NCBI GenBank assembly: GCA_051294905.1
Contig: CM119372.1
Coordinates: forward strand, 32,738,001 to 32,802,000
Source: Botryllus schlosseri
Lineage: Eukaryota
Direction of reading: 5' to 3'
Length of the DNA: 64,000 nucleotides
Of the stretch, positions 2,082 through 52,285 are shown one piece after another (the first letter of the stretch is position 1; each line of letters starts with the position of its first letter). The position numbers were made by a program, and so were the translations under genes. The notes under the pieces are model-generated. The model had not been told where the DNA came from, did not search any database, and saw only the letters and a list, made by a program, of their open reading frames with translations.

Positions 2082-2476
2082 CAGTGGTTCCCAACCTTTT
2101 TCGACTCGTCGCCCCCTTATCAATCTCAACACAAATTTTCGCCCCCCCCCCATATTTACGAATCTGAAAAATAGAACATATAAACGGAAAATTTATTCAC
2201 TTAACTCTGATTGCTTGGGAATTTTCCGAGGTGATAAGTGCTCGGAAAACCGGTTTCCGCGTCTGCTTCCCGTTGAGATAACCCTTTTACGCGTCATATG
2301 CAGAATAAGCCATCTTCACATGCATTTTTCGACGAGTTAATTAAATATATCTCACCTGACGTTCTAACATTTTTTCTCCCCAGTCGCCCCCTTTGGTGTT
2401 TTTCGCCCCCTTGTTTCTCAAAATCGCCCACTGGGGGGCGATATCGGCTACGTTGGGCTGGAAGTGGGAACCACTG
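2082..2476. mobile_element. hAT (Charlie/Buster-like) MITE
   Basis: TIRs CAGTGGTTCCCA / TGGGAACCACTG; an internal part recurs inverted at about 47400-47510. Confidence 0.75.
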
Positions 2477-3029
2477 TATTAAGCGATTAGGAAGTAGATG
2501 ATCTCTGCACCTAAAAGTATAGTAAATATTTCGAAATCGGTGATAGAGGGCTCGATTTTTTAAATTTAACGCAAATACTAAACATTTTCCTGTTGTCAAT
2601 GTTCATGCCCCCGCCATCGATATCTATTCTAATTACACCTCGAAAATGCAGTAAAATTTGATTTTTCGATATTGTGGTGCAATGCTGAAGTCAATTGAGT
2701 CCAAGCTGGTACAAAACATCGAATTAAACAAACAGAAACTCACTTTCATGCACTAGAAATTTAGAATCCTCTCCTGATCCGGATCCGGAAGTCGAGCAAA
2801 ACATGAGTGTCTGGATCCGATCCTGATTGAGAACAACTTCCCGGATTCATGTCCGGTTATAATCTAAAATCCTGATCCTGTAGCCCTATCGCTAATGTTG
2901 ATACCGAATTGACAAGTCAGAATACGCCAGATTCACTCAAGCTATGCATAAAGCAGGATGTTTCGGATTTTTCGCAATCAGTAATTCAATAAGATTTTTA
3001 AAAGCGTCGAAATGCAAAGTTGTAACCAA

Positions 3030-3599
3030 AAAAGTCACAGAGTCGCGAGTCAGTCACAAGTCAATTCTACTTTTATAGTTTTGACTCGAGCCAAAGTCGA
3101 GTCATTTTCAATTCATCACTGAGTCAAGTCCGATGCCAAGTCAGGGTTCAAAGGTTCGAGTCCGAGTCACAGTGTTGGGATTAGAGTCCGAGTCCTATAG
3201 TCATTGTGTTGTGTTCACTGTTCATTTTCGAGTTCAATGTTGTTCAACTCACTCAAATCTGTTTGGATGACATTGAATGCCTAGCATTCATAGGTAATTT
3301 TCCTCACTTTACAAAATTTCTGACCCTATTTTACGAACACCAGTACTGATAGCCAAAATACCAATCATGTGGTAGCTTACAATGCTTCGAAGTTACACCG
3401 AAATGTTAGTCTTAGCCGTCCGAGTCTCAAGTCATATGACCTGGTTGTGTCATGTGCAATAACTGGAGTACAAGTCGAGCAAATATATTGTCTCTGCCGA
3501 GTCGAATAATTTTCTATATTTTGGAAAATAACCGGGGTCAAGTCAAGGCACCAAAAAACCCCACTCGAGTCTGACTTGAGTCGAGTCATTACAACCCTG
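3030..3599. mobile_element. GAGTC/GACTC-array MITE, partial
   Basis: Dense (CG)AGTC repeats at both ends, right end ATTACAACCCTG; same motif class as 44920-46250. Confidence 0.5.
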
Positions 3600-4995: not shown

Positions 4996-5662
4996 ATTGC
5001 AATAGGCACGGGCGATCTAGTCACCCGTCAACGGCTTTTGTGCGTCGTGACGCGGTAATGGCCGACGCCGAAATGTCTATCTCTATAAATTACGCGGTTT
5101 TTGGGTGGAGGAGGGTACCCATTTTAAGAGCAACACAGCTGTTGATATCACACCGCAAAGAAAATTTGTAAAATGTATAAATTTTCAATAAATTACTCTA
5201 TATTTTGTTTTAATTCACGCAAGAATTTGGGGCTCCCTTCGAGTTCGCCCCCCTCCAATTGGGGGTTCGAATGTGGCTATAAGCTTGAGAACTTTGTTCT
5301 CTCGTCTCCACGATTATATGTCCGACAAAATAACTATAGGGTTGAAAGGGTGATTGAGTGCCTGTTCGCATTGATCACACGATATTTAGCCCTTGCTTTT
5401 GGATTATATGATGCGACAATCAAGTGCATCAGCGATCCTTTTCGATGTGCAGCCTGCAATTTTCGAAAATAAATGCCAGATACCGACTGTAATTCGGTGC
5501 ACTGCGACAGCTGTAATTGCCATGGATCCTACAAGCGAATGCTAGTTCAAATGTATGCTACATTGATCATCGAATCTCGAAGCAACACAGCTTGCAACAC
5601 CAACCAGTAAGCTTATCATACTACATTGCGGATACTCGTCTTGACAGCACGACATCACGGCG

Positions 5663-6619
5663 ATGGACGACATAAATCAAACTTCATCTACCGTTGACGT
5701 TCGGATTAATCTAGGTACAACCCAAAAGACGTACTGGTCGGATGTATCCAGTTTTAAAATATGGCTGACGTCGGTCATAACATCCAGTCTGTTTCTGGTG
5801 ATATCTGCGTACATTCTAGTTAGATTACTGATCGACTCGATGCGAAATGGAATATATCATGACGGAAGCTGGCAGATTTTGCCGGCTGAGAGATATTGGT
5901 CTGGTGCTATGTCTGTCTGTCGCATAACGTCAGTGACCTGCGGCGCTGTGGTCTTCGTGGAAGACTTGTTCGTGCGGGTAGCAGTCGATCACTTCATGCA
6001 GTACCTGTGTCATGCTAGCAAAGTCACAAAAGTAGTCGCGATGAGTGTTGGATTCATATCTAGCTACATGGTGATGTGGGTGAGGCAGAAAATGGCGTAC
6101 GACAAGTCCACGGCTAGAAGTCTTCGCGATGAAAACACGAGAATGGTGTCCGCCTTGGTCCCGATCTTGCTCTTCGGAACAAGCATCAGTTACTGCTTAT
6201 CATACGTGTTAGTAACTACGTTCGGAATGATCGAAGCTGGTTGTGCAATTGAGAAGCTACAGGTCCCCACCCGTCAACCGTGGATCATTGCATGTGTGAT
6301 ATTCGCCATGATGCAAATACTTATCCTCTGGCTTTTCCATCAACCATTGAGGAAGAACGAACTGAGTAAAGACGACCTATTAGGAGATCTCAAGCCTATA
6401 TTGCAGCGCGGATTTTACACTACTCTCGGTTGCTCTGTATCCGACTCCATCAGTTCAGCGTTGGCAGTGACATCAAAATTCGAGGACGGAGTGAAGTTGA
6501 GTTTGGTGAATAATATCAGCGTGTTTACAAACGTGATGATGGTGACGGTCTCCTACATTACCTGGAAGGACACCATACTGTTTCGAAGGTCGGTTGAGGA
6601 AGATAATGCGGAACAATAA
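5663..6619 (+). CDS. Intronless orphan seven-transmembrane (GPCR-like) protein, 318 aa
   Basis: Long intact ORF in non-repetitive DNA; seven hydrophobic segments; N-terminal NQT sequon; Cys at top of TM3 and in the TM4-TM5 loop; AATAAA at the stop. Confidence 0.8.
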   Translation: MDDINQTSSTVDVRINLGTTQKTYWSDVSSFKIWLTSVITSSLFLVISAYILVRLLIDSMRNGIYHDGSWQILPAERYWSGAMSVCRITSVTCGAVVFVEDLFVRVAVDHFMQYLCHASKVTKVVAMSVGFISSYMVMWVRQKMAYDKSTARSLRDENTRMVSALVPILLFGTSISYCLSYVLVTTFGMIEAGCAIEKLQVPTRQPWIIACVIFAMMQILILWLFHQPLRKNELSKDDLLGDLKPILQRGFYTTLGCSVSDSISSALAVTSKFEDGVKLSLVNNISVFTNVMMVTVSYITWKDTILFRRSVEEDNAEQ

Positions 6620-7698
6620 TAAACCTTTACTAATACATCAATTTGCGACACATTATGGTCAAACATTCGATAAGTCCTGGGCCTGGGTATCTGCAGACAC
6701 CGATGACCATTTTATTTAGCACCGTATTGCCGAGGCAGGGACTCGCTGCCCGCACCATACTTTAAGCCACACGACACACAAAAAGAATTAAAATCTGAAA
6801 GAAAGGACCGTTCTATAACCGCCCATTTTGTATGAAAAGTATTAAGTATTTGGTCTTTCGTAAATTTTGATGAACGTTACGCCATAATCGTCGTGAATAA
6901 ATTTTCGATACGTGACGATTTCCATTAGAGAAAATTTGCTTGCTATGGTTGAACATTTAGCTCCAGCAATCCATACATGGTGGCTTCTGTCGCGTTTCGT
7001 GCTACAAGAACTTAGTGATGGAGTTTAGGCTAGGATTGTTCGCCGATGCTACATTTCGAGGGTCTAAAATTGATGCACGTACGAATTCGCAACAACCAAA
7101 GGCAGTATATATGGATGACTATTTTGCAATTATGTACATTTTAGTGCTGTTCCGCTTCATTTCCAACAGCTTGTCGCTTGGTTTTATTTATATTGAAATG
7201 TTTCGTGTCCGCATTATGCATTATTAAATACATCCTGCTAAGCAAAGTCTTTGTATCTAACCACGAGTATTCTTTTTGTTTTGATAAACGGGGGAGGTTG
7301 AACTTTATAACGGTTGATGGTTGCGAATGAATGAGTTTGTATAAGAATAATCCAAGAAATATATTGCGAAATTTACAGTATACACACGCTTCGGAATATG
7401 ACGTAAACTTTCGGGGAAAATGAAAGACGATTTTTACACAAGCACATCTTCAAATCATTATGCCTGACCATGAGCCTAGGAGTTCCCGCAACCGTCATAT
7501 AGCTAGGGCTCGGCACAATCGAATCTGAATCGAGTATTATAATTCTAATGCTAATTCGAGTTGAGCATTGAGAGACGTTTTTTTCGAGTACGAAAGTTAT
7601 ACGCTCCTCGCTACTGAGAGTTAATTTGTCAACGAGAATCATATTTTCAAGGGAATTTGCCAATGCGGAAGGCTGTAACCTCGAAACATGTAGTACAA

Positions 7699-9161
7699 CA
7701 GAGCCGCAACAGCACTTCGTCAGGCCCCCCCCAAAACGTTGGTCTCGGGCCCCCCATAGGGTGGGAAATCTAACTTATGGGGGGCTTCGCCCCCCAGACC
7801 CCCCTCCGACTATACGCTGTTTACATACGGTGTGCGCTGTTTCTTCAATGCTTGTCCGTTTAGTGAGTCTGCTTTGCTTGCCTAATCGCGCGAAGCGCGA
7901 GAAAATTTTGTAATTCACGACTGAATACGTCAATATGACGCTGTTTATACATGGAGTGTCCGTTTAGTAAGTCAGCTTTGCTTGCTTAATCACGCGAAGC
8001 GCGAGAAATTTCTATAATTCATGACTGAATCTGTCAATATGGTCGGTATTACTTATATATTGCTATCAATTTTTATCCTCTCTCTGCTCCCGTAATCTGA
8101 TTTACCGGTAGAGCTGAGTAAAGTGTACTTGAAAAGGTAGGACCCCTCAATAATAATTGAACATCTCCGGGTGTATACCCGTTGGCAGGAACGAAACAAC
8201 ACTTCGTCAGGCCCATAAAAAACTTGAGTCTTGGGCTCCCATAGGGTGATAAACCGACCCCCCCAAATCACGTTGTTCGCGTTTGTCATGTAATTACAGT
8301 TGTACAGTTCAGTTAGCCAGCGCCACGCGCGAAAACTTTTGATAATTGATGATAAAATCGGTCAATAAGATTGGGAATTGCATATATATTGCCATCAATT
8401 TCTTGTCCTCTCTACTCACGAAATCAGATTTACCGGTAGAGCTGAGTAAGATGTCTTTGAAACTGTAGAGCCCGTAAATAATAATTAAACACCTTCTGAC
8501 GGGCGGACTCATTGGTATGACTTCGTTACATGATGTTACTTCGTGACCTCCTGTCTGCTATATCAAAAAATATAGAATCGCCCAAACGTAGCCTACTAAA
8601 CTAAAAGATCACACGATTTCAAATTGGTATTTCTTCACTGGCATGTAATTTTTCGATGCGGGATGGTATCTGTCCTATGAGGTTCAGATTACCAAGACAG
8701 GAACATTCGGCGCCAGTCATTTAGGCGACTATGGACAAATAAACCTATATGTCGCCTATTTCGTAGCCTATAGCCTATATAACGAAGTTTTCGGTCATCA
8801 TAAGGGCAGTCCTTTTCTGCCAAGGTTTCTCGCTGCCGATCGTTCTGGCACACTTCTTGGAGTCGCGTGTTACATGGCCTAAAACTGTATATGTCTTGGT
8901 GCGTCGCGGCGCGGTAATGGCCAACGCCGATATGCCCATTTCTATAAATCTTGTGTATTTTTCACTGGGGTAAGAGTACCCAATAATCATCACATTTGGC
9001 AACTTGAAATCGCGCGCAGCGCGAAAAATTTGTGAAAATGTCGCATAAAGTTTCAAAAAAATGCTCTATAATTTATGCTAATTCACCAAAAAATTTGGGG
9101 CCCCCTTCGAGCTCGGGCCCCTCCCAATTGGGGGGTTTGGGGTGCGGCAGTTACGGCCCTG
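7699..9161. mobile_element. TIR element family A, full-length copy
   Basis: TIRs CAGAGCCGCAAC / GTTACGGCCCTG; direct repeat AGTACAA on both flanks; internal duplicated blocks. Confidence 0.85.
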
Positions 9162-9642
9162 AGTACAAAGCTACGCACGTATGTGAACTTGTGGAGTCGT
9201 GATAGCTCACATCATTGTCACAACTCACAAGTGCAATGATTTCCCCGAATTTTCAAAAACTCTGACGTTCGCTGTGACGGACTCGAGTTTTTGATAACAT
9301 TTAATACATTTTCTACAAAACGAGTGCTGTCGCTTCGTCTGATGATTTTTTTCGAACAACAGGTGGATAGTTTTTCTGCACGGCACACATTTTTCTGTGC
9401 TAGCAGCTTAGAGGGAGCATTTCCATTTACCCTGGGTAAAACGGTGCTTGCTGTGCAAGCAGTGAGCACAATTGCAAGTTACAGTTACTTAGTAGTGTTT
9501 CCCTTTCTATCAGGTGAAGCAATATTTAGGAAAGTGATGGAAAAGTATAGGCCTACGTATCTACGTGAATGATATTACTTCTATATTCTTACACGTTGTT
9601 ATAGTCTGTATACTGTTTTCTGAAGCTTTCACTTTGCTGATT

Positions 9643-11557: not shown

Positions 11558-12648
11558 TAGCGTTGGGACCCCGGGTAATCCCGATCCCGGGATCCCGGGA
11601 TTTGAAGCAATCCCGATCCCGGGATTAATCCCAATGAAATCCCGGGATTTGTAAACAGCATTTTCCAAGGCTTACGTAGCGCCATATCTCTTATTTTGGT
11701 AATAAAGCAATGTCACAAACTCTGCTGATCGTCTAAATAACAATTCACAATTATTTGATATTAAAGCCAACTATGTCATAACAATGATTTACACAATCAC
11801 TTTCGTCGTAGTCTACGGATCGTAGCAGTGTATCGGAAAGTCACAAGGACGGTGCGGTGGAGGTGAAATACAGGTCGAACAATAGCGAATTTCGATTCGA
11901 AGATGTCAATGCGAAGAAAAAATTACATGTTTGGCGACACTGTTTGTTTTATAAATCTACATAAAAAGCCAAATGCAACTTGTCTCAAGACGTTTTGAAA
12001 GCTTCAGTGTCTAGCATAAAGGGACTGATAACGCATTTAAGGTCTGTAAAAATGATAGTAATTAAACCATGCATGATTCAATCGGACACGTCAAAGAAAG
12101 ATCAGCCAAAATGATAATGAAGAAGATCGATTCCTATAAAATAAATCGCATAAGCCTCGCCTCGATGAACTTCTTAACCAGTTAACTGCTGTGGACGGGT
12201 AAACATTTATTCAATTACCCAAAATGAGTGAATTCGTCGGGCCTTCAAGGCTTATGGCTATGACTTGTCAAGATGTCGCAAACGGGTTTGTGACTTGGTG
12301 ATCGAGCACAGCAAATAAATCCGTAAGTGTGTGGAAGAAGAGCTTATGGCAATGAAACGCAACATTGGACGTTTTTCGATCACGTTTGACGAATCAACTT
12401 CTACACGAAACAGGCGGTACACGAATTTAAACGCTCACTATCCGGGTGGCCTTCGGTCGCTGGTTTCATTCGTCTTCACGGGAGCATGTTTCTGCGTCAA
12501 TACTACAAGGAATAAATGTTGTGTGTGTAGCTTGTATGTGTATTTTACTATACTTTGCTAATCTCGGGAAATCCCGGGATTGAGAAGCGCAAATCCCGGG
12601 AAATCCCGATCCCGGGATTTCAAATTTGATCCCGAAGTCCCAACCCTA
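11558..12648 (+). mobile_element. Internally deleted hAT transposon inserted in the Gypsy pol tail
   Basis: TIRs TAGCGTTGGGAC / GTCCCAACCCTA; perfect TSD GCCCTATG; ATCCCGGG arrays; remnants of a BED finger (VWRH...AKCNL...LITHL) and FSITFDESTS. Confidence 0.9.
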
Positions 12649-12950
12649 GCCCTATGTCTGACCAATGGTTGCTCAGCTTGTGACTGTTGCGGCTGAGCAA
12701 CTTCCTGTGTGGCTGTATCATGACCAGTGGAAATCAAGCGTGGTTGAAGTTGGTTTTTGTGCCTCCTCCAATAACCATGATGTGTTTTTATAATGTACAC
12801 AACACGCCCCCGTATTTCCGTCACCACGCCAGCACCCCACTTTGGTTCGCGTCGGTAACTACGAGCGTAAACCGAGGAACCAATCCCGAAATGAGTGACT
12901 GATTGTCTAGGCGTAACGGGTTTCGATTTATCGAAGGGCGAGCACAAACT

Positions 12951-15716
12951 TTACAAATTGCGCGGCTGTCGACCATGTAAAATCTCGGCAGGCGTTTTCC
13001 AGTCTATGCCCGGGTGCGGTGCACATCGGTACGTAGCGAGAAGTGTTTGGAGCGCGAAGTTGAGATCTTTTCCCCCGTCGCAATTTTTTATTAATCCAGC
13101 TTTTAAAGTCTGGACGAAACCCTCCGCTTCCCCGTTCGAGGCAGGGTGAAAAGACGGTGATACGATATGGCTGATTGCCAAATTAGAACAAAACGTATCG
13201 AATTCATTCGATGTGAAATGCGGCCCGCCATCCGTGACAATTGTTATGGGCAAGCCTTCGATAGAAAAGACTTCCCTCAAAGCGTTTACTACACACAAGG
13301 TTGCGGTAGATCCGACATTCATTACTTTAACGAAAGGATATTTCGAATGCGCATCGACGATGACAAGAAACATTTTATTTTTTATTGGACCTGCGAAATC
13401 CAAGTGAATTCGTTCAAAGCTTTCAGACGTTTTTGGCCATTCGCGATACTGACGATCAGGCGCTTTCATTACTTTACGGCAAGCGTCGCAACTCTTAACG
13501 AGATTTTCAATGTCGCAATTAATGGAAGGCCATGCGATGTAACGTCGAGCCATCTGCTTCATTTTCGCGATACCCCAATGTCCTTCGTGCAACAATGATA
13601 AGGCTCGCTCTCGAAGTGACTGCGGAATTACTACGCGCTGGAAACCATCGATATTGAGCATGACTATGTCTTCGTGCAGAGAAAGCGAATGTTTGCGAGT
13701 CGAAAACCAAGAAAAATCATCAATGTGCGTCTTTGGATTCCAATTACCATGAGTGACAGATAATTTCACTAGTTCCATGGTTTTGTCTTTCAGCGTCGCG
13801 TCGCGAATTTCATTGCGAGGTAACGGTAAGCCATCGAATGCCATATTAATAGCGTGAACGATCTCTGCGTTTTCACGCATTTCCAATTCGTCAAACTCAG
13901 GGTCTGGACCCTTTGGTAGGCGAGATAAACCGTCGGCGTTTCCGTGCTGATTAGTCGGTTTATAGCGAATGTCATATTGATAAGCCATGAGCGTTAGTGC
14001 CCATCGCTGTAAGCGTTGCGCTGTAATCACAGGAATTTTCTTGTCCGGCGAGAAAATAGCTAAAAGCGGTTTGTGGTCCGTCACGAGCGTAAATTTTCTA
14101 CCATACAAAAATTGACGAAATTTAGTGACTCCGTAAATGATCGACAGAGCTTCCTTCTCTATTTGAGAGTAGGATTTTCGCGAATCGGAAAGCGTTTTCG
14201 ATGCGTGCGCGATAGGTCTCTCTTCGCCATTGTGCTCAATTGAGAGGACAGCGCCGATTCCGAATTGAGAAGCATCCGTTGACAAAATGAGCTGCTTGTT
14301 TACATCATAATGAGCTAACTGCGTAGCGTCGATTACGCCGTTTTTGAGAATGCGAAAAGCTGCATCACAGTCCGTATTCCAAATAAATTCCGCGTCTATT
14401 TGAAGAAGACGGTACAAGGCAGCGGCTTTATTCGTGAAATTAGGAATAAACGCGCGATAATAATTGACTTTGCCCAGGAATGCCTGTAGCTGGCGAACAT
14501 CCCGAGGTTTAGGCAACTGTTTGATTGCTTCAACGGATTTGTTAGACGGGTGTTTGCCATCCTTGTCAATTATGTGACCAAGATACTCGATACTACTTTT
14601 GAAAAATTCGCATTTCGCGAAGTTGACGGTGAAACCGTATTCGGTGAGGCGCTCAAAGAGCAGCGATAAGTTGCGAAAATGATCGCGTTCATCAATGCCA
14701 GTAACGATTATGTCATCGATAAAACTAGCAACACCGGGCAAGCCGGCGATCATGGCATCAATACAGCGTTGAAAATTTGCGGGACTAGATGCGACTCCGA
14801 AACACACGCGTCGATAACGGAAAAGACCGAATTGCGTGTTGATGACACACAAATTCTTCGCATCATCATCTAATTCTAGCTGAAAATAAGCATCGGCAAG
14901 ATCAATTTTCGTGAAAATACAACCACCCTGTAACTTGTGAAGAATTTCATCCAAGGAGGGCAGGGGATGTTGATCTATCTGAATCTGTGGATTCAATGCT
15001 TTAAAGCCGCCACAAATGCGTACTGATCCATTAAACTTGGTGACGGCAACAATTGGTGCTGCCCAATCACTGTAATTGATTGGTTCGAGAATACCATGAT
15101 TGACTAATCTATCCAATTCGGTTTGAACAGCGATTTGCCTTGCAAACGGCAAAGGGCGTGGCTTGTTAAATACGGGCTTGGCATTGGGTTTCAAGTGAAT
15201 TGTCACCTTTGTCTTGGTGCATCGTCCTAATACATTAGAGAAAACGGAGGGAAATTTGGACTGAAAAGATACCAATTTGTCGTTCGAATCAGAAATGTCG
15301 ATAGTATTACATGATTGCGATTTGACCATCTGCGAGGAAATTGCATCCAAAACAGACGTTCCCTTAGCGGTCATGGAGAAAGCATCGCTCCAATCGAGAC
15401 CAAAACTGTTTTGCCCACGGTGTTCGTCGAGAACTACCAATTTTAAGCCAACTCGAACTTCGGAACCCACCTGCACTGTTACAGTGCAAATACCTTTCAC
15501 TTTCAGTGGCTTGTCGCCATACGCTACGAAAGAGCAATGGTATGCTGAGAGTTTCGGAGAGCCCAAAGTTTTGTACCCAGTCAATCCCACCATGGCGGAG
15601 GGTGCACCAGTGTCCCACTGTGTCGGCAACGGAATGCCGTTGATGCTGGAGTTGATCCAGAGCTGGTTTATTACGCGTCGATATAGTTGATCGATGTCGA
15701 AGGAGAGGAGTGGCAC
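12951..15716 (-). CDS. pol: Gypsy Pol polyprotein (protease, RT, RNase H, integrase), disabled
   Basis: WDTGA protease; KIDLADAY and FIDD RT; TDAS/EKEAL/TDHKPL RNase H; HHCC and HLDF/VTD/AE integrase motifs; bounded by in-frame TAA stops, with the reading frame continuing on both sides. Confidence 0.93.
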   Translation of the reverse strand: MPLLSFDIDQLYRRVINQLWINSSINGIPLPTQWDTGAPSAMVGLTGYKTLGSPKLSAYHCSFVAYGDKPLKVKGICTVTVQVGSEVRVGLKLVVLDEHRGQNSFGLDWSDAFSMTAKGTSVLDAISSQMVKSQSCNTIDISDSNDKLVSFQSKFPSVFSNVLGRCTKTKVTIHLKPNAKPVFNKPRPLPFARQIAVQTELDRLVNHGILEPINYSDWAAPIVAVTKFNGSVRICGGFKALNPQIQIDQHPLPSLDEILHKLQGGCIFTKIDLADAYFQLELDDDAKNLCVINTQFGLFRYRRVCFGVASSPANFQRCIDAMIAGLPGVASFIDDIIVTGIDERDHFRNLSLLFERLTEYGFTVNFAKCEFFKSSIEYLGHIIDKDGKHPSNKSVEAIKQLPKPRDVRQLQAFLGKVNYYRAFIPNFTNKAAALYRLLQIDAEFIWNTDCDAAFRILKNGVIDATQLAHYDVNKQLILSTDASQFGIGAVLSIEHNGEERPIAHASKTLSDSRKSYSQIEKEALSIIYGVTKFRQFLYGRKFTLVTDHKPLLAIFSPDKKIPVITAQRLQRWALTLMAYQYDIRYKPTNQHGNADGLSRLPKGPDPEFDELEMRENAEIVHAINMAFDGLPLPRNEIRDATLKDKTMELVKLSVTHGNWNPKTHIDDFSWFSTRKHSLSLHEDIVMLNIDGFQRVVIPQSLRERALSLLHEGHWGIAKMKQMARRYIAWPSINCDIENLVKSCDACRKVMKAPDRQYREWPKTSESFERIHLDFAGPIKNKMFLVIVDAHSKYPFVKVMNVGSTATLCVVNALREVFSIEGLPITIVTDGGPHFTSNEFDTFCSNLAISHIVSPSFHPASNGEAEGFVQTLKAGLIKNCDGGKDLNFALQTLLATYRCAPHPGIDWKTPAEILHGRQPRNL

Positions 15717-16279
15717 TTAGCAGAAATTGACGGATGTGACCTGTTGCGTGATACTAGGTTTGGTTGACATGCACACAGGTTTGATATGACCTTTACGACC
15801 AGTAAGTGTTACGACACAGTCAAAACCAATGTGATTTTTACAACAACACAACTGCTCCCTTCAACACGCAAAGACGCTCTCCCTTCACTTCAACAAAGTA
15901 ATGTAGTGTACGAATATAAATGCCACTGTGATTGTGGCTACGTGGGAAGAACGTCAAAACGTCTGCAGGAACGCATAAACCAACATGTCCCGAGATTCAT
16001 CAGAACACGTGCTTCACGCTCAGTGAAAAGCTCACCCTTACCTCATCCGCTTAAGATTGATGCTGATCGATCAAAGGCCATCAATTCTGCCATCGGCAAA
16101 CATTTGTTAGATAATGCGATTTGTGCGAATAATTATCGAGACGACCGATTTCGAATCGTTGGGCGAGGCCGTTCACAATTCCATTTGTGTGCCTTGGAGT
16201 CGACTTTTATCAAAATACACCAACCACAACTCTGTCAACAAAAGGAGTACGTGTACCACCTAAAAATAGTACATTGAAC

Positions 16280-16315
16280 TATAGATAACTAACCTACGTA
16301 GGTTAGTTATCTATA
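16280..16315. repeat. Perfect 36-bp palindrome insertion
   Basis: TATAGATAACTAACCTAC|GTAGGTTAGTTATCTATA between two ATTGAAC repeats; absent from the second PLE copy. Confidence 0.9.
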
Positions 16316-16415
16316 TAATTGAACGCTCGCTCATTCACGAAATTTCATGCTGGTGACGTCATATTTTGTGATACGATTGTTGATATACAATGTTCTTTCC
16401 ATTTCTCTACTAGTT

Positions 16416-16459
16416 GCTGACGATTACCCCTGACGAGTGTCAGCCGAAAATATTCGGGT
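16416..16459 (+). ncRNA. Minimal type I hammerhead ribozyme
   Basis: Stem I ACCC/GGGT; core CTGACGA (16430-16436) and GAAA (16446-16449); palindromic AATATT stem III; UC cleavage site at 16454-16455; lies in a PLE terminal region, where hammerheads are known to occur. Confidence 0.8.
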
Positions 16460-16699
16460 TCATTTCAATATGAATATACTATTCAATTGTATATTGAAGT
16501 TCTGTTCCTCCAAGAAGCTCTTTGATCTTGGTAGAATGACCAATCGATACAGGAGAATATGTATTTCCGTTGTGCAAAAGTACAATTTTCAGGCTTGACA
16601 AATTGCGTTTTTGGCAAACAAATATTTCGCACCAAGTCATGTTAATATTGATAGAATGACTGAGAATGACATAAGGGTTCTTCATAGTCAATTAGTTAT

Positions 16700-21469: not shown

Positions 21470-21740
21470 ATACAATTGAACAGTTTATTCATATTGATAT
21501 GAACCCGGATATTTTTGACTGACACTCGTCAGGGGTAAACGTCAGTAACTAGTAGAGAATGGAAAAGGACATCGTATATCAACAATCGTATCACAAAATA
21601 TGACGTCACCAGCATGAAATTCTGAATACGAGAGCGTCCAATGTACTATTTTTAGACGTTACACGAACTCTTTCACACACACTTTCATTTATGTGCCTTG
21701 GATTTGACTTTTATTAAAATACACCAGCCAAGGCTGTGTC
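21470..21740 (-). mobile_element. Second PLE 3' fragment with inverted 5' segment and mutated hammerhead
   Basis: 21470-21673 is the reverse complement of about 16240-16492; about 21684-21740 matches about 16180-16236 directly; hammerhead relic at 21503-21546. Confidence 0.85.
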
Positions 21741-21965
21741 CACGTCCAAATTAAAATCTAAATCTGATACTAATTCCAATGAGTTCTTCAATTCAATTTT
21801 TCCCATACAAATCTAAATCCACGCACACCTTTGCTATATTATTGTAAAATCATCGTGGGAAACCGACTAGAGCTTGCGCGTTGACTTGGTATAGGTAACG
21901 GAAATCAATGAGCCACACAGCTGTGTTTCAAAATACATTTTAAAAACAGGAGTTATATTCCTCTG

Positions 21966-22681: not shown

Positions 22682-25251
22682 CAGAGGTGGTCAAAGTAGT
22701 CAAGAAGGCTACTCAAGTAGAAGTAGAAGTAGCGACGAAAAAATCTACTCAAGTACGAGTAGAAGTACTTCTTCTTCTTCCATAAGCAACCCAAGACTAC
22801 TTCAAGTAGAAGTAGAATTGACTGACTTTAAATCTACTCAAGTAAGTAAGTAGTTGTGAAAACGATCCTAATTCGTTCACAGGGATTGTCAAAAGCTGCA
22901 AATTGAGCTACGCGAAAGGTGCCGAGCTTGATTCATATTGATACATATCAGGAGGTATCCAACTTTCGACAGCATCCGTGCGCATCATGGGATGAAAATG
23001 ATAGTATTGATATGGAAATGGTATACTAATCCTCTGTTTTCACGAACAGCACGTTTTAGAAAATATCATGGTATGGCGCCCTCCCCCATATTATATGACC
23101 CGTAGTTTAGTCGAAGAACAATACGGGGAAGTTATATAGGATACGGTGTAAACACTTTGCGCGATTAGTAGACGGTAATAAAAAATATGGTGGACCGTAA
23201 AAATGCCATATTGTGTAGCTTTATTTCCGGAAATTAAAAGCATTGCTACACTTGCTTTTAGAGTTCAACATGTATGTTATCCGGACAAAGAACTGATATT
23301 AATTAGAACTCAAAGTATATGATACTGAGAATTGAAAGTGAAATATAAATACTACTTATAAAAGCGGAACATGTATTTCATCTCTTTAGTCCAGAAAGTT
23401 TCAAAGGTGGTATGCAGCACCGTAACTGCCGCACCCCAAACCCCCCAATTGGGGGGGGGGGGGCGAGCTCGAAGGGGGCCCAAAATTATTTCGTGAATTA
23501 GCATAAATCATAGAGAATTTTTTGAAAATTTATGCATCTTTTTTTCGCGCTGCGCGCGAATTCAAGTAGCCATTTATCTTTATTATTGGGTATTGGGCCA
23601 TTACCGCGCCACGACCCACCAAGACATACAATCAAGTTTTAGGCCATATAACATGCGACTCCAAGAAGTGTGCCAGAACGATCAGCAGCGAGAAAACCTT
23701 GGCCGAAAAGGTCTATGCCCTAGGTCTATGCTGACCGAAGAATTCGTTATATATACAAAATACACATAGGTTTAATTGTCCATAGGCGCCTAAATGACTG
23801 GCGCCGAATGTTCCTGTCTTTGCAATCTGAACCTCACAAGACAAATACCATCCAGCTGGGAAAAAATTTATGTCAGTGAAGAAATACCAATTTGAAATCG
23901 TGTGCGTCTCTTAGTTTAGAAGCCTACGTTTGGGCGATTCTACATTTGTTGATATAGCAGACTGGAAGTCACGAAATAACATCATGTAACGAAGTCATAT
24001 CAACGGGTCCGCCCGCCCGAAGATGTTTAATTATTATTTACGGGCCCTCCCGTTTTCAGTACACTTCACTCAGCTCTACCGGTAAATCTAATTACGTGAG
24101 TAGAGAGGACAATAAATTGATAGCATTATATATATGCAATCGCCGATCTGATTGACCGATTTTATCATAAATTATCGAAAATTTTCGCGCTTCGCGCTGG
24201 CTCACAATACAGTACGGATGATTTCGTGACAAACGCGAACAACGTGATGGGGGGTCGTTTATTCACCCTATGGGAGCCCAAGACCCACATTTGTGGGGGC
24301 CTGACGAGGTGCTGTTTCGTTCCTACCAACGGGTATACGCCTGAAGATGTTTAAATATTATTGAGTGGTCCTACCTTTTCAAACACACCTCACTCAGCTC
24401 TACCCGCAAATCTGATTTCGTGAGCAGAGAGAAGATAAAAAATGATAACAATATATGCAATTCCCCATCATACTGACCGATTCAATCATGAATTCTAAAA
24501 ATTTTCCGCGCTTAGCGCGCTTAGGCGACAAAAGCTGATTCACTAAACCAACTCCCAATGAATATGATAAATAGCGGTAAACAGTGTATCGACGGAGGGG
24601 GGTTTGGTTCGGTCTATAACCCTATGGGGGAGCCCAAGACCAAAGTTTTTTTTGGGGGGGGCTGACGAAGTGCTGTTACGGCCCTGGTGGTATGCTAGAA
24701 CAGCTCTAAAACTAAAAAAAGGTCAGAGTCCACTTTTTCGGATTAGGACACGCCATGGACATGCTATATTACGATCTGAAAAGTAAATGCTAGATTGCGA
24801 AACATCAGTTTCAAACGTTATGATGAGCCATATATATACTGTGATGAAATATTTCATATGGGCGAAAGGCGACAATGTGGCGTGAACGGAACCACGCCAA
24901 CCCGTTTCCTAAATTATATTCATCGATACTATCGTGAAATTATAGTGGTTACTCCGTATCCACTGTGCGCGAAGCGAGACAAAAATTCTGGGCTTTACTC
25001 AACTGTTATGAAAATTAAATGTTGATACTCAGTGAAAACAGCCCCGAAAACCTCCTGCAACCTTCCTGATTGGATGATTGAACTACTTCTACTTGACAAA
25101 CTGAAAATAGCGAAAAGTAAGTAAGTAGATCACAAAATAACACGAAGTAGAAGTAGCGAAAATCAGATGTACATGAGTAAGTACCAGAAGAAGAGGAAAA
25201 CTACTTGAGTACTTCGAAAAAGTAGAAATACTTCGTTACTGACCACCTCTG
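22682..25251. mobile_element. hAT MITE family B carrying a family A insertion
   Basis: Same TIRs as 18958-20266; perfect TSD GTTGTGCA. Confidence 0.9.
23415..24686. mobile_element. TIR element family A, nested, opposite orientation to 7699-9161
   Basis: TIRs CAGCACCGTAAC / GTTACGGCCCTG; perfect TSD GTGGTATG; single-copy empty site at 19712-19719. Confidence 0.9.
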
Positions 25252-30467: not shown

Positions 30468-32221
30468 CAGTGGTTCTCAACCGCCGGTCCGTGACGACTT
30501 TCCAGCCGGTCCGCCAGGTATGTTACAACTTTATACCTTAATTTCAAGATGCAATATCTTGAGGGCTTTTCCATTGATAAAATAAATATAACACCAATTT
30601 TTAAACTGATTCAGAACTACATGAAAAAATAGGTCTGGAAACATGTTCGATTTGACTTGTAGTTCAAGCCGTGTCATTTGACGACATGCGAGCGACAAGT
30701 ACGAGCTGAGTCGCTAAACCGCGCAATTCGCGCGGTCATTCGTTTTCGATTCATTCATTTTGTGAAGAACCGTAGCTGCCGCACCCCGAACCCCCAATTG
30801 GAGCGGGGCCGAGCTTGAAGGGATCCCCAAAATTATTTTGTGAATGAACATAAATTATACAGTATCATTTGAAATTTTATTCAACCTTTGTCGATTTTTT
30901 CCCGCTTTGCGCGATTTATGTGGCTAAATGTGTTGATTATTGGGTGCCCTTCCTACAAGAAATACGCATGATTTATAAAAATAGGCATTTCGGCGTCAGC
31001 CATCACAGCGCCGCGACGCGCCAACACATAATGCAGTTCAGGCTAACATGGAACTCCAAAAAGTGTGCCAAAAATTCGTCATCGAGGAAACCTTGGCCTA
31101 AAACGACTGCTCTTTGTTGACCGTAAACTTCTATATGTACGTATATGTATATTGTCGATAGGTTCATAGACGGCTGACTCCTAATCTCACTGCACTGGCA
31201 ATCTGTACCCCACTGGACAAATGCCATATACTAAAGAGAAAAATTATTTGCCAGTGAAGATATAACTATTTGGAATCGTGTGCGTTTTTTACTTTAGTAC
31301 GCTTGGGTGATTTCAATATCTACTCATTAAATAACAGACAGTAGGTCTGGAAATAATGACATGCAATGAGGTAATTACTTCAACAGTCCCACCCGAATAT
31401 GCCTAATTACTAATTACGTGCCTGCATTTTCTAAGGCGACACCTCACTCAACTCTACCGGAAAGTCGGATAATTCTTAAAGTATAAAAAATTTATAGCAA
31501 TATATATGCAATTACCAATATTATTGACCGATTCAGTCATGAATTATGGAAAATATTCGCGCTTCGCGCGATTACCTTGCATCAACTCTATGCCTACACT
31601 AAGTAAAATGATTGTGCTCACAAATACACGTGAAAACATTCACCCAACTGTGATGTTTGGGGGGCGAAGTCCCCCAAAGTTTGCTTCATCACCCTGTGGG
31701 GACCCAAGACCAACGTTTTTGGACGGGTGGGCTGACGAAGTGCTTTTTCGGCCCCGATTTTGTGGACGGTCAGCTATAGCTGTTGCCAGGTGTTTTCGCG
31801 CGGCGCATTGTATTCGTAATAGTAGCCAGAGTAGCCCAAGTCTGGTGATAGTGGGCAATGAGCATGGTAACACGACAAAGGGCTTGGTTCGACTCCAAAA
31901 CGTCTTTTCTCTCGATATTGCCGAAGAGAAGAATATTATTCGAGTTAGCGTGCCCGGTAAAATCCATGACCTTCGGCGCGAAAGGCTGTAAACGACTCTC
32001 GGCGGTAGCACGTTTATTTGGGCAACGCAAGGATGCTTTCATGATCATAATTAATTACGATAAAACACCGCAAAATGTCACTCTTTAGCACCATATAATT
32101 GCAAACAACGGTTGCATACTTCACGTTTGAGGTTGATTTCAATTTTTGAAGGTCCACCGGCACGACAAATATTTTTGGAAATTTGACCGGTCTGCGAGGT
32201 GAAAAAGGTTGAGAACCACTG
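30468..32221. mobile_element. hAT (Charlie-like) element with nested family A copy (about 30766-31757)
   Basis: TIRs CAGTGGTTCTCAACC / GGTTGAGAACCACTG; inverted homologue of 44593-46633. Confidence 0.8.
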
Positions 32222-36174: not shown

Positions 36175-36974
36175 CGTCTAGCGCGAACAATTCATGATTA
36201 AATCGGTCAATATGATCGGGAATTGTATAGATGTTGCTCTCAATTTTTTTATCCTCCCTACTCACGTAATCAGATTTCCCGGTAGATCTGAATGAGGTGT
36301 CTTGGAAACTGTAGGGCCCGTAAATAAACAATAAACATATTCAGGCGGAATAATAACTTTATTGTATGATATTGTTTCGTGAACTCCTGTCTGCTATGTC
36401 AAAGGATATTGAAATCGCTCAAACGTATAGCCTACTAAACTAAAAGAGGGACAGGATTTCCAATTGGTATTTCCTCACCGGCAATAAAATTTTCCTTGCT
36501 AGTTGGCATCTGTCTTGTCGGGTTCAGATTGCCAGAACAGGAACATTCGGAGCCAGCCTTTTAGGCGCCTATGGACATGGACAATAAAACATATAGGCCT
36601 ATGTATATATATCGAAGTTTTCGGTCGACATAAGGGCAGTTGTTTTCGGCCAAAGTTTTCTCGCCGCCGATCGTGCTGGCACACTTCTTGGAGTTGCATG
36701 TTACATGGCATAAAACTGTATATGTCCTTTGTGTGTCGTGCTGTGGTAATGGCCGACATACCCATCTGTACAAAACATCCCTATTTATTGTTGGTACCCG
36801 ATAACCCAGATATTCGGCAACATTCAGTCGCGCGCAGAGCGAAATTTTTTTATCAAGTTGCAAAATTTCCAAAAAACTCTATAATTTATGCTAATTTACG
36901 AAATAATCTTGGGCCTCCTTCGAGCTTGGGCTCCCCTCAATTGGGGGGTTTGGGGTGCGGCAGTTACGGTCCTG
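36175..36974. mobile_element. Family A, left-truncated copy
   Basis: Collinear with about 8325-9161; ends GCAGTTACGGTCCTG. Confidence 0.8.
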
Positions 36975-37015
36975 CATACACAAGATGAGCTACAGTTCCA
37001 TTGTTTTATCTACAT

Positions 37016-40931: not shown

Positions 40932-41806
40932 GTAACAAGTAATTTTCAATTGTTCAAGAGGTTATGTACTTCAAATCCTATCCTCGCTGTACAGGTGTTC
41001 AGGACCTGGTTAATAGGCGTCGCTTGTCAATTTATGTTTGTTCATTGATGATTGAATTGCAAATTAATTGCTGCATAACAATGAACTTGTACGGAAACGT
41101 TGACGACGACTTCCAAATTGAATGCGTCTTGTACGATCTCGAATGACATGACCACGTCTCAATATATCTGCTTTTAGTGTGCAAACAGTAGATTTACGGA
41201 TTTCAATAGTGCATGTCACCCCCTTTTATTCAACGCCGCAATCGACCGGTTTGTAGTTATCGTACTTGCAGGTTCTTGGTTGCAGGTTGTGAACGCCCCC
41301 CCAGTGAATGGCTGGTTTATGGCCTACCTTCATCATATTGGTTGGTGTTTGCAATGACAAAGGTAATAATTTGAATACGAGGTTATAAAACGTGGCACTC
41401 GCATTTGATAGTAGAGTGAGTAGAAGTAACAGGAACGCCCTGACTTTCTACTCGGTAGAAGTAAAAACTACCAAGTCAGCATTCTGGTCTGATCTTACCT
41501 AATAAGCTGAACTATTTTGAGTAGAAGTCGATGTAAGCCTAGTCTTGAATCGTAACCAATTGAGTGTTGTAGTCTCAAATCGTAAACAAATGAGTAAGTA
41601 GTTCAAGTGGAAACGGTGATCTTGTTCAACTGGTTAGCCGGCAACGTTGAATATCCCAATATCTCGAGCCGAATCCGTTCTATTTCAGACTGTACGGAAA
41701 GAAGTGATGCTTCCATGCACATTTCAAAGTTGATTATCGAATCAGCTAATGATCGCCAAAGAGTATGTGCCAAATTCGGTAAACCAACCTATTTTGTTAT
41801 CTTCAG

Positions 41807-42159
41807 ATATCTTTAAAAAGGCTCGAGCCGACTTCTATGCAAAAAAAGGCCAAGATGTCCTGAGTCGTAATTTTGGCCCGGTCAATGATCATTTACATTC
41901 GCATTATTATCTGGGTTCCAGCATTCCTAACTACGTCGATTTCATCCTTTTCAATTTGATGGAGCTACATGAACGTAAGCATCCAGGCTTCATCAGTAAA
42001 CTTCAATATATAAGGCGTCACTACAATAACATGAAAGATCTGCCAAAAGTGAAAGATTACCTTCCGCGGTATGGAATTGGGGAAGATGCACCAAAAAGGG
42101 GTTACGTTCTCAAAGCGTATCGCGGTCTACGCACTCCGCACGACTGTGTGAAAATGTGA
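41807..42159 (+). CDS. Divergent Mu-class-like glutathione S-transferase, exon 2
   Basis: TTATCTTCAG acceptor, phase 1; YYLGSSIPNYVDFILFNLMELH...LPKVKDYL is the GST C-domain; joined CDS 678 nt (225 aa). Confidence 0.78.
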
Positions 42160-44592: not shown

Positions 44593-46633
44593 CAGTGGTT
44601 CTCAACCTTTTTCACCTCGCGGACCGGTAAAATTTCAAAAAATATCTGGCTGACCGGTAGAGCTTCAAAAATTGAAATCAACCCAAAATGTTAAGTATGA
44701 ACCGTTTTTTTGCACGTATGGTACTAGAAAATGACATTTTGAGGGTTTGGTCCATGATAGTACTCATGTGATTTTACTGTAGCTAGTCAGCTGAGACGAG
44801 GTAAATTCTTATTACAGTCATTCGCGATGAACGCCGTGGATTAACTGACTATCTGCCACTTCTATAATATTCTTCTGTTCGGCGATATCTGTAAGAAGCG
44901 GTTCGGAGTCGGACCATGCCAGTGTTGGGATGGCTCGAGTGATGACTAGACTCGAGTCAACGTTTTCAAATGACTTGACTGGACTCGGTGTCTCAAAAAT
45001 GTGGATTTACTCGTGACTTTAAGCAAAATTTCCGAGTGAATTTCAAGTCATGAAATAATCGGTGTCGACTAACTCGCTGTTGTACTTCGCCCCCCCCCCG
45101 TAGGGTATTAAATCAAACTTCTGGGGGTTTTTACCCACCATACCCCTCTCAATTTATACGTTTCCAGCGCTACTTGTCAGCGACTTTTCTTAGAATCATC
45201 AGTGAATCTGTTTATGTGGGTCCCGCCTAGTGCAAAAATTTTCATGTAATTAAAGACACTATCGATCAATAATATCGGGAAATGCATATATATTGCTACA
45301 ATAAAATTTATCTATCCCCTCTCTGCCGACGTAGTCAGATTCACTGATGGAGCTGAGTGAGGTTTTGTGATGGAAAATGTAGGCGTCGTGGCGCAGTAAT
45401 GGACGCCGTCAAAATAGCTATTTCTATAAATCATGCGTATTTTGTCTTGGGGGAATAATACCATATAACGGAGATAAACGGCAATATTAAATAGCGCGAA
45501 ACGCGGAAAAAATTGTATAAAGTTGCATAAATTTTCAAAAAATACTTCAATTCATGTCCATTCACGAAATAATGTCAGGCCCCCATCGAGCTCCGCCTCG
45601 CCTAATTTGGGATTTGGGGTGCGTCAGTTACGGTCCTGCGTACATGCTCTCGACACGCTGATATGATATGTGAGCAACCAGCCATTAAACTATTGCGCAA
45701 CTTGGTTTTACTTAGCCTCCGTCGGCAAGTCACAAATAATGATTGCAAACGTAGAGATTAGAGCTTTCGTTGTTGTTGACTAGTAGTATTCTATCTGTAG
45801 CAGTGTCTTTCTGCTCAGTACTTATCTTTACGAACCTGGTATATTTGTTTATACATTTATAATACTCCTCAACAATTGTTTCAGGCTTCAATTGTATCGT
45901 ATGGATATATCGTTGAATTGTGTATGGGATCATAATCAATTTGTTTCAACTTCTGAAGTTACCAACGTGGCCGAATATTTCTGCGCATACGTGAGCCAAT
46001 CAAGGCCCGGTTGTATGTATAATTACCTGGATATTCGTTACTCGATTCATCGTAAATCAATGTGTACTTCAATCACCTTGCGCAATGCAACGGCTTGAAT
46101 CATGCCTCGAACTTCGAAAATTCGACGTGACTTTGTGACTTGACTCGAGTCACCTTCAAAAATCGAGTGTCTTTGACTTGACTCGTACCAGTTAGAGTAG
46201 TGGTTCGAACTGAGTGGTGACCCGAAGTTAGGGACTTGATCCCAACACTGGACCAAGCGCGTTGTTGTTCTACCTTGCTCATTTCTCACCACCACCAGAG
46301 GTACTGTGAGTGCAATACGCCGCACGAAAATACCTGACAGCCGCGATACGGGCTTATCCATAAAATTAATGAAGTTGAAAAGGAATGATTGTGAAAACTG
46401 CGTGGTTTAGAGAGTCAACTCGTACTGGTCTCTCGCATGTCGACAAAGGAGAAGGCTTGAACTTCAAGTTATATCGAACATTTTTCCAGGCCTAATGTTA
46501 CCTCACGAAGTTCTGAATATGGTAAGGTTTCATTTATTTCAGCAATTGACAAGCCTTCAGCATTTTGCATCTTGGAATTAAGGTATTAGATTTTAAAATA
46601 CCTGGCGGACCGGCAGAAAAGTCAGAACGACTG
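44593..46633. mobile_element. hAT (Charlie-like) element hosting two further nested elements
   Basis: Left TIR CAGTGGTTCTC, degenerate right end GAACGACTG; perfect TSD ATGTAGAG. Confidence 0.8.
44920..46250. mobile_element. GAGTC-array MITE with nested family A copy (about 45075-45638)
   Basis: TIRs CAGTGTTGGGAT / ATCCCAACACTG; TSD GACCATGC / GACCAAGC; homologous to about 25975-27095. Confidence 0.85.
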
Positions 46634-50485: not shown

Positions 50486-52096
50486 GTAAGTAGGGGGTTT
50501 CGGTTTAGATGCTTTCAACCTTTGCCAGTTGAAGTCTAGAATATGCGTAACTAAATTGAAACAATATAGCCTATATTAGCACTTGCTCTTGCCACACAAT
50601 CAGCAATATCAGCAGCTGTACACGAAAAGAGTGTGGCAAAGGGATAAATCTTGACAAAACAACGAATGTCATACTTGGGCAATGATATTGTCACCAAATA
50701 TCACCCAGAAACTTTTCTGTGAAAATTCACGATGAAGAGGTAACTCATTGTCATACTTCGATAACTATTCCGACCATTGTAGTGTTCCAACGATGGCGTT
50801 GACGTTCAAGTTGCGAAGGTATTGACTGTTCATATCCTTCCTGGAGTTCGGGAACATCATGCATGTCACTTTATTTCGTTTGTTGCTTCTTAAGACGTGA
50901 CACGATCCAACTCAATTGTGGAAAGTTTGCGACTGCAAATTCAAATTCCTGCTGCGCCGCTGTGAGCCTATTTGCACGCATAATTGTTCGTAGTCTTCTT
51001 ACTCTACACCGGGATAATTTATTACCGCGTACTTCCCGAAGAGCCGTGACGCCAACAAATATAGTGAGGTTATGCATCAATGTTAATAACGATATGCCCG
51101 TCTGCCAAGGGGCAAATAGGCCTATGCGGTTTATCAAGTGTACTTAAATTGGCACATATCATAATAATAAATAAACAGTGAATATATTCTAATTAATGAT
51201 ATCTTCATCTGTGATCCATAAACAGCATTGATATGTAAAGCGTGATAATATTGGATGAATGACGTAGATATAAATGAGTCACAAGCAGTGTCGAAATTAT
51301 CACACACATAGGCTACATGCAGCATTGCCATTTTCCCGGTAGCACAGCCTAAGCGGCTACATTGTTAATTGAGAAATATCAAGTGAGACTTGGTTTCGAT
51401 GCTGAAGATTGCAAACTGCAATTAGCATAATGTTTTGACAAATTTTCGGCGATAGCATTGCCACTTTACGTGGGTGGTTGATGAGCATATAGCCGTGTTA
51501 GTCACTTGAGCCTACGGCAAATTCAATATTGTGGTTGGTTGGATGCTGTTTCTCAAGTGTTACAACACTGTTGTTTACACGTCATGGCACGGAGTAACAT
51601 TCGAAGTACACAAATGTACAGTCAAATTAATTGTAAATTTTTCATTGCGACGATTATACCGACGGCGCGATATTTTGCAGTTACTAATGCGGACTGGGTA
51701 AAAAGAGTCTAAAATAAGCCTACGCTTAACTACATATTCTCATAAAATAGAATTATAGTCATGTCAGAAAGTATGATATGCGCAATCACGCTATTTCGTC
51801 ATTTTATTTTAAACAAATGCAAATGCTTGATCAGCAATATTATGTGTGCTTCCACTACGCCGATCCTTGAACGAGTTGAAAGAATATGAATGAAAAGTCA
51901 TCGTCAAAACGTGGCACAATATGAGATTGTATCAAAGTTTTCTTTGTAGAACCACTCCGAATATGAATAGTTCCACGCGTACGCAGTAGCGTGCAGGGTT
52001 CTGTTGACAGCGAACGTCGATGAACTCAACCGTGCACCCGTGATCTCCCTAATCCAATTAAGATATTACAATATTGTTATTTTTCCACCGCCACAG

Positions 52097-52285
52097 ATAC
52101 CGGTCGGTTTATCCCTTGGCGTTTCATTCATATCGGCCGTTACTGTGATCGGCGGTCCCGTGGAGTCGTATCTGTTCGGCGCCGTACTCTCGTGGATGTC
52201 TGTCGGGTTTGCCATTGGACTGGCGTTTACATCGGTTTATTTCGTGCCCCTCGTCTACAGACTAAACATATCCAGCATATATGAG
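52097..52285 (+). CDS. SLC5A-like symporter, exon 3
   Basis: IPVGLSLGVSFISAVTVIGGPVESYLFG...PLVYRLNISSIYE; AG/GT boundaries in phase 0. Confidence 0.92.

Follow-up and report, generated by a model that had tools for sequence, protein, structure and literature searches.

A hammerhead motif with a single-pair stem II and a predicted pseudoknot at the start of the reading frame in Penelope-like elements

The motif at positions 16416-16459 of the window (the whole 64,000-nucleotide stretch of Botryllus schlosseri DNA analysed here) is probably a type I hammerhead ribozyme of a Penelope-like element (PLE) terminal repeat, in which a stem II of only one base pair is likely to be extended by a 6-bp pseudoknot. 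Judged by its sequence and that of its relatives, it would cut after C16455, probably only when two copies are paired. Four other element families share the pseudoknot, and sequence comparison therefore supports it as a trait of a group of PLEs. A stem II of a single pair with a 6-bp pseudoknot has already been described, tested and crystallised, and neither the chemistry nor the fold is new; the build had previously been tested only in non-animal hammerheads. What the literature covered did not show is the combination predicted here for an animal PLE: a pseudoknot without helix IV, a stem III of the dimer type, and cleavage at the start codon.

The motif and its place in the terminal repeat

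An earlier sequence-only reading had proposed the motif and its segments. Direct comparison with the sequence placed every named segment at the coordinates proposed, in the type I topology:

16416-16421, plus strand: 5′ strand of the pseudoknot, a predicted helix; complementary to 16439-16444 in a register common to four other families, and also a blind prediction of RNAalifold
16422-16425, plus strand: linker of 4 nt (4-6 nt in relatives, with stem I drawn as 4 bp); its first base is G in all families
16426-16429, plus strand: 5′ strand of stem I; two-sided changes at three of four pairs among four sequences
16430-16436, plus strand: catalytic core C3-A9 (CUGANGA), identified by sequence
16437-16445, plus strand: stem II, a single G10.1-C11.1 pair closing a 7-nt loop, the last six nucleotides of which are the 3′ strand of the predicted pseudoknot
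16446-16455, plus strand: GAAA core, 6-nt palindrome (16449-16454) and cleavage triplet ending at C16455; the cut position follows the hammerhead consensus
16456-16459, plus strand: 3′ strand of stem I, directly after the predicted cut

This copy of the motif (copy 1) contains the conserved type I core, CUGANGA ... GAAA ... UH, with GAAA at 16446-16449 and G16437-C16445 as the stem II pair. Loop II is 7 nt long (16438-16444) and six of its bases can pair with the upstream strand; the pairing of GTCAGC had been recognised correctly, with the loop counted as these six bases alone. An additional G.U pair between U16438 and G16422 is possible. Stem III consists of the palindrome and closes only as a dimer, since within one molecule a pair or two at most can form. 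The upstream strand is a repeat of core sequence, 13 nt earlier. Two other ways of drawing the motif were rejected: the upstream core-like repeat cannot be the true core, having neither a stem I nor a stem II, and a longer stem II in another register is excluded because no such pairing is possible.

The surroundings of the motif, and a second copy on the opposite strand, comprise the following features:

15768-16277, plus strand: 3′ end of a PLE open reading frame (ORF), a 5′-truncated GIY-YIG endonuclease remnant (169-aa frame, stop codon at 16275-16277)
16280-16315, no strand assigned: perfect 36-nt palindrome, an insertion foreign to the family; absent from copy 2, and bypassed by joints from 16279 to 16338 in all four runs
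16338-16522, plus strand: high-copy terminal repeat (pLTR end) with the hammerhead and the ORF start, marked by a depth plateau and loose contig ends
16470-16523, plus strand: the opening 18 codons of the PLE ORF, from its start codon, which recur in the pLTR; the peptide matches P0150 from residue 1
16493-16522, plus strand: optional PLE tail of about 30 nt, present in copy 1 and not in copy 2; two sets of 3′ ends
21470-21743, minus strand: copy 2, a shorter 5′-truncated copy with the last endonuclease codons, identified by comparison with copy 1
21503-21546, minus strand: hammerhead of copy 2, with a compensatory change at pseudoknot pair 1 and with G12 and U16.1 changed

The endonuclease remnant ends 153 nt before the hammerhead core, and its homology begins near residue 9. 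The Pfam GIY-YIG match is weak (E 0.008), and Atlas GIY-YIG clusters matched the frame at 0.96. A search with this protein returned 2,505 representatives at E ≤ 0.001; the closest homologue, P0001, is 89% identical, and P0009, a member of the P0001 cluster, carries a reverse transcriptase (RT) ahead of the same GIY-YIG domain. When long relatives (682-841 aa) were scanned, RVT_1 was found in five of five and GIY-YIG in two of five. The RT-endonuclease fusion is present in P0009 and in full-length relatives, and the RT part itself is absent from the window. The 36-nt palindrome just past the endonuclease stop codon, seen in copy 1 only, is perhaps the footprint of another mobile element.

Downstream of the motif, the first ATG past the predicted cut is at 16470, 14 nt from the cut. 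The 18-codon peptide that it opens aligned to residue 1 of P0150 (836 aa) with a score of 50; when 100 shuffled versions were compared with 161 proteins, none scored above 41. In two runs, loose ends of DNA contigs fell at 16338, 16488-16493 and 16522. The two 3′ ends, with some 30 nt between them, agree with the optional tail of 30-40 bp that PMC8557442 and PMC11167929 describe for PLEs. DNA contigs over 16080-16560 numbered 120,528 and 34,550 in these runs, indicating a heavily repeated element in which depth does not equal copy number. Among the 40 best-supported variant rows from four runs, ahead of 225 further rows, none lay in 16403-16460, five lay in 16338-16402 and three in 16461-16522.

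The window thus shows the pLTR layout (ORF end, UTR, hammerhead, ORF start) together with 5′ truncation. Because the endonuclease end lies upstream and the ORF start and tail lie downstream, we place the hammerhead at the leader/ORF junction of a terminal repeat and read both window copies, from their sequence, as 5′-truncated PLE ends; the PLE context first suggested for the motif agrees with the endonuclease remnant, with the RT-endonuclease fusion of its relatives, and with the ORF start and tail. The 64-kb window holds only these two copies, with no tandem or inverted arrangement, and no convincing target-site duplication was found at either. As to clade, a motif search of the part of the Craig 2021 supplement covered gave 0 matches, and our endonuclease tree contains no named reference clades.

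The terminal repeats of the two copies are 91% identical over 152 nt, and the homology of copy 2 stops at 16492. Within the motif, 5 of 44 positions differ: the two bases of pseudoknot pair 1, G12 (A in copy 2), U16.1 (C in copy 2) and the linker base at 16423. The paired change had been noted before, in a list that omitted the linker change. In hammerhead chemistry G12 acts as the general base and positions 15.1 and 16.1 form a pair. Copy 2 departs from the core consensus at both G12 and U16.1, and its hammerhead is very probably inactive, as had been suspected, with the general base and the 15.1-16.1 pair both gone. Its covariation is a single event in a decayed copy, with a chance of about 0.06 (10 substitution pairs × 6/946) even before the right bases are demanded, and the case for a pseudoknot therefore required support from outside the window.

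The predicted pseudoknot in related element families

Relatives were sought by endonuclease alignment alone, blind to RNA, which gave four loci in two bacterial genome bins; a second endonuclease alignment added one more locus (L232). Three PLE families were reached in this way, with endonucleases 47% (L141), 55% (L142-144) and 50% (L232) identical to the window protein, and all three carry the same hammerhead build. A fourth relative family, L146, came from a core pattern that fixes neither stem I nor the pseudoknot (six matches in two bins); it is 86% alike to the L142 family over 71 nt. The contigs holding L141, L142-L144 and L232 (CAXMWX010000005.1, CAWUFB020000001.1 and JAAEPJ010000438.1) are filed in prokaryote genome bins. 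They are probably host (animal) DNA binned by mistake, since they carry PLE sequences and tandem repeats; L142, at 2232-3061, has head-to-head PLE tails within a tandem array of about 3.6 kb.

All five families, the window family included, have a one-pair stem II, a 7-nt loop, a 6-bp pairing in equal register and a palindromic stem III. The stem II pair is G-C in four families and G.U in L141, and the upstream pairing strand lies 8-10 nt before the core in all five. Six of six pseudoknot pairs can form in every family, with pair 1 being G-C, A-U or U-A and pair 3 being U-A or U.G. L146/L147 are unlike the others at pairs 2-5, yet retain six Watson-Crick pairs in an unchanged register; this difference may represent one 2-nt register slip on both strands rather than four events. 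The palindromic positions of minimal PLE hammerheads (15.2-16.2 and loop 3) are palindromic in the five families, and the 6-nt palindrome is kept with three different sequences, which fits the dimeric cleavage envisaged for the motif from the outset. L232 has one core substitution. The sense copies of L142-144 have damaged cores and their inverted partners are intact.

When four sequences were aligned in register, 98% of cells paired and covariation was 0.52 versus 0.21 in shuffled alignments (0/500), and slid controls gave 18-40% pairing, both controls being inflated by the relatedness of the four sequences and by a structure drawn from one of them. Four of the six pseudoknot pairs are invariant in this alignment, and direct covariation consists of one column pair and one wobble. 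Stem I, of 4 bp, shows two-sided changes at three of its four pairs. RNAalifold, run on the four sequences, chose the pseudoknot helix unprompted. The more distant PLE L212 (about 35% identity), which shares a contig with L141, served as a control: its stem II is of the ordinary kind, with 4 bp and the extra base. In a quick endonuclease tree of 64 of 116 rows, the three pseudoknot-bearing rows fell in a 30-row branch with support 85, not starred, which does not by itself establish a single origin. The pseudoknot first proposed from the two window copies is supported by these four further families, and its restriction to one family falls away.

Comparable structures were rare in controls. Among 150 dinucleotide shuffles of the window, none contained the core together with both a 4-bp stem I and a palindromic stem III. 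Viral and metagenome scans gave 124 chance core matches, in none of which did stem I consist of four Watson-Crick pairs; out of 155 distinct chance cores, one could form a similar 6-bp pairing between loop and upstream sequence. Rfam hammerhead models gave no match in the window (E ≤ 5) or on 121 nt (E ≤ 10), and no further hammerhead family emerged when the window was scanned under relaxed criteria. Pattern scans for further copies of the window family found none in viral sequences (4, 0 and 5 stretches), none in prokaryote genomes (16 and 53 stretches, of which 5 of the 53 were already known PLE loci) and none among the 120 metagenome matches listed of about 150; the remaining matches were chance events and were used as nulls. 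In viral contigs, protein-led scans yielded 0 confirmed cases, and a search among longer proteins found none.

Comparison with known hammerheads and PLEs

The minimal hammerheads described from PLEs (PMC8557442) are likewise of type I, with a short stem I, a G10.1-C11.1 pair and a palindromic stem III, and they occur in the 3′ pLTR of truncated copies. In the published material covered (56 rows of Fig. S3; File S2) their helix II is long, the shortest being 3 bp, whereas five families here have 1 bp. They usually have an extra base after A9, which is absent here and present in the control L212. In the relevant passages of PMC4209133 and PMC7761336 they are described as lacking tertiary contacts, whereas a conserved pseudoknot is predicted here. 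Because Rfam misses the motif and published PLE tables list a helix II of at least 3 bp, elements that have been scored as 'core' only may hold the one-base-pair form.

A close structural parallel is the PK hammerhead (crystal structure 8YDC; Zhan et al. 2024, PMC11300833), in which a 6-bp pseudoknot replaces helix II and rests on A9:G12 and a single G10.1-C11.1 pair; its reported cleavage rate is 16 per min. In both cases, here by sequence comparison, loop II is taken up in 6 bp of pairing to a strand 5′ of stem I; the helix ends next to C11.1, and its other end could be capped by a G-purine or G.U pair. In the PK hammerhead, however, a 5-bp helix IV has the upstream strand as its loop, and an A-rich strand in the minor groove connects it to stem I, 11 nt in all, whereas the motif here has a linker of 4-6 nt that is not A-rich, and no helix IV. 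Its loop is 7 nt rather than 6, its stem III is a bare palindrome and its host is an animal retrotransposon. A helix IV like that in the crystal was considered and rejected as not conserved: a weak 4-bp stem in copy 1 leaves no linker, and flanks elsewhere cannot pair in this way. The speed of the crystallised form need not apply to a motif from which helix IV and the A-rich linker are missing. With no helix IV, the motif would be a more compact natural version of the PK hammerhead fold.

A stem II of a single pair with a 6-bp pseudoknot was also reported by Perreault 2011 (PMC3088659, Fig. 4), with cleavage above 1.2 per min and a pseudoknot on which this speed depends and that was disrupted and rescued; the same account gives pseudoknots in all three hammerhead types, in about 40% of its set. 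That one-base-pair case is of type II, with loop I pairing to a 3′ tail, whereas the motif here is a dimer-type, type I hammerhead of a PLE, with loop II pairing to the 5′ flank. Exact motif strings had no match in 11 supplements of that paper. A pseudoknotted PLE hammerhead was not found in the literature covered, which included parts of PMC10085705, PMC7936874 and the preprint 10.64898/2026.07.22.740005; one may be shown in Lunse et al. 2017 or Arkhipova et al. 2017, outside that set.

The Poseidon PLE of the lizard Anolis carolinensis (PMC11167929, in the sections covered) shares the position of the hammerhead at the ORF start inside the pLTR and an optional tail between two 3′ ends. In that element the cut falls 26 nt downstream of the start codon and stem II is conventional, whereas here the predicted cut comes 14 nt ahead of the AUG. 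What hammerheads do in PLEs has been called unknown (PMC8557442, PMC7761336, in the parts that discuss it), partly because those tested are slow. A PLE group with a pseudoknot geometry that is fast elsewhere would offer a clean test: a 44-nt motif whose compensatory variants occur naturally and whose predicted cut lies at the start codon.

Predicted cleavage and alternative readings

In the mechanism that we favour, the pseudoknot helix would stack on G10.1-C11.1 in place of helix II; we infer the same stack as in the crystallised PK hammerhead because the register ends next to C11.1 in both. The linker of 4-6 nt would tie the pseudoknot helix to stem I, as a substitute for helix IV and its A-rich strand. 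Two repeats of a tandem transcript would then meet and their palindromes pair to form a dimer stem III. Cleavage as a dimer is suggested because stem III cannot close alone and its palindromy is conserved, and has been proposed, and partly shown, for PLE hammerheads (PMC4209133 and PMC6765202, in the portions covered). The dimer stem III of copy 1 is six A-U pairs, with a duplex energy of −0.2 kcal/mol, and its lowest-energy nested fold is inactive, with loop II on the core and a hairpin over GAAA. At the level of the family the motif is a selected one; individual window copies may be inert.

Relative to the AUG, the predicted cut lies 14 nt before it in the window and passes through it in L146 and L147 (1526-1528); L141 has an in-frame AUG within the motif. 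The cut would remove the cap and leader or split the start codon, and would free unit-length RNA. Because it lies at or before the AUG, cleavage would stop translation of the downstream unit. Genomic copies extend 33-67 nt beyond the predicted cut, and this site was therefore intact, or joined again, in their templates. RNA ends did not accumulate at the predicted cut in either of two RNA runs, of which about 6% and 3% were covered. RNA reads in both runs came from both strands and mostly continued into other loci. The missing pile-up is not decisive, as such libraries and dispersed copies would mask ends, and with the active lizard PLE, too, insertions extend past the cut and RNA-seq ends are lacking there (PMC11167929, in the sections covered). 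In the single-cell run X22, one direction was about 2.8 times deeper over the motif (16338-16522) and the bulk run was balanced; library effects are possible.

Loop II may have been selected to pair with the core in an off state and with the upstream strand in an on state, the state being set by the element's protein or by the order of transcription; we consider such a switch possible, though unlikely. In it, the upstream strand would serve to counter inhibition as much as to brace the fold. Loop II closes a 4-5 bp hairpin with the core in four of the five families, where it ranks among the most stable 0.4%, 1.1%, 1.1% and 4.9% of 16,384 loops, and this core pairing survives the register shift in L146/L147. 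A switch would explain why the central pseudoknot pairs are invariant beside a freely varying stem I; it is also consistent with the upstream repeat of the core 13 nt earlier and with the lizard PLE hammerhead, which cleaves only with its protein (PMC11167929, in the part covered). L232 is an exception, however, with a rank of 14% as it stands and a substituted core, and full-length nested folds favour the upstream pairing in four of five families, with core pairing at or below 0.26. The families also share ancestry, and had the upstream strand originated by copying of the core, loop-core complementarity would follow without selection. The fullest version, just as tentative, is a gated switch in a widespread branch of animal PLEs: a knotted hammerhead at the start codon whose loop II masks the core or forms the knot, and which, when two repeats pair, cuts to turn mRNA into template. 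If this were true, the cut would uncap the message or split the AUG, the elements would have a fast ribozyme that offers the most direct handle yet on the purpose of PLE hammerheads, and a hammerhead form would have been missed by the stem II-based searches used so far. Slightly less probable again is a fold that is real but serves chiefly as a protein-binding, translation or reverse-transcription signal, with cleavage slow or rare and dispensable for transposition. The lizard hammerhead requires protein for cleavage and is dispensable for insertion in vitro; its mutants still insert and the main template is uncut RNA (PMC11167929, in the part covered). Metazoan PLE hammerheads are poor cleavers in vitro (PMC4209133, in the part covered), and the extension of genomic copies past the cut and the lack of RNA ends there in two runs point the same way. 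It would be hard to explain, however, without selection on chemistry, why the core, cleavage triplet and palindromic stem III were all kept while the stems turned over.

The upstream pairing could instead be a plain hairpin that blocks the hammerhead, or a by-product of a short core duplication, with an active form that lacks the pseudoknot. As a nested hairpin, the 6-7 bp helix does surpass every other element in stability in several families, and the predictions contain it without stem I. We think this improbable, because stem I covaries at the same time (at three of four pairs), which argues that both helices are selected; the register is fixed beside C11.1 exactly as in the crystallised PK hammerhead, and no alternative stem II is available. 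That the motif is a chance look-alike or a dead relic without selected structure would fit the absence of an Rfam match and the truncation of both window copies, which cannot transpose alone, but is hardly credible: the null tests and the compensatory changes in five families refute it at the family level. A pseudoknotted hammerhead acting on paired repeats remains the reading that we consider probable.

The PLE copy lies among other repeats and coding fragments. A Ty3/Gypsy-like pol (12558-15716, minus strand) abuts the 5′ end of PLE copy 1; its open frame of 921 aa matches RT, RNase H and integrase by Pfam, and a 130-aa frame follows its stop codon. A connection of the hammerhead with this pol was ruled out, the two being separate elements on opposite strands. 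A dispersed repeat family of 1-1.5 kb (7696-9167, 23410-24689, 30763-31754, 36189-36980 and 45221-45644) contains several internal copies of a short motif that starts like a hammerhead core, the second half being missing on that strand. An uninterrupted hydrophobic frame of 324 aa (5645-6619, plus strand), with no Pfam match, looks like a multi-pass membrane protein. Two exon-like frames on the plus strand match the glutathione S-transferase C-terminal family (41734-42159) and the sodium:solute symporter family (51971-52384).
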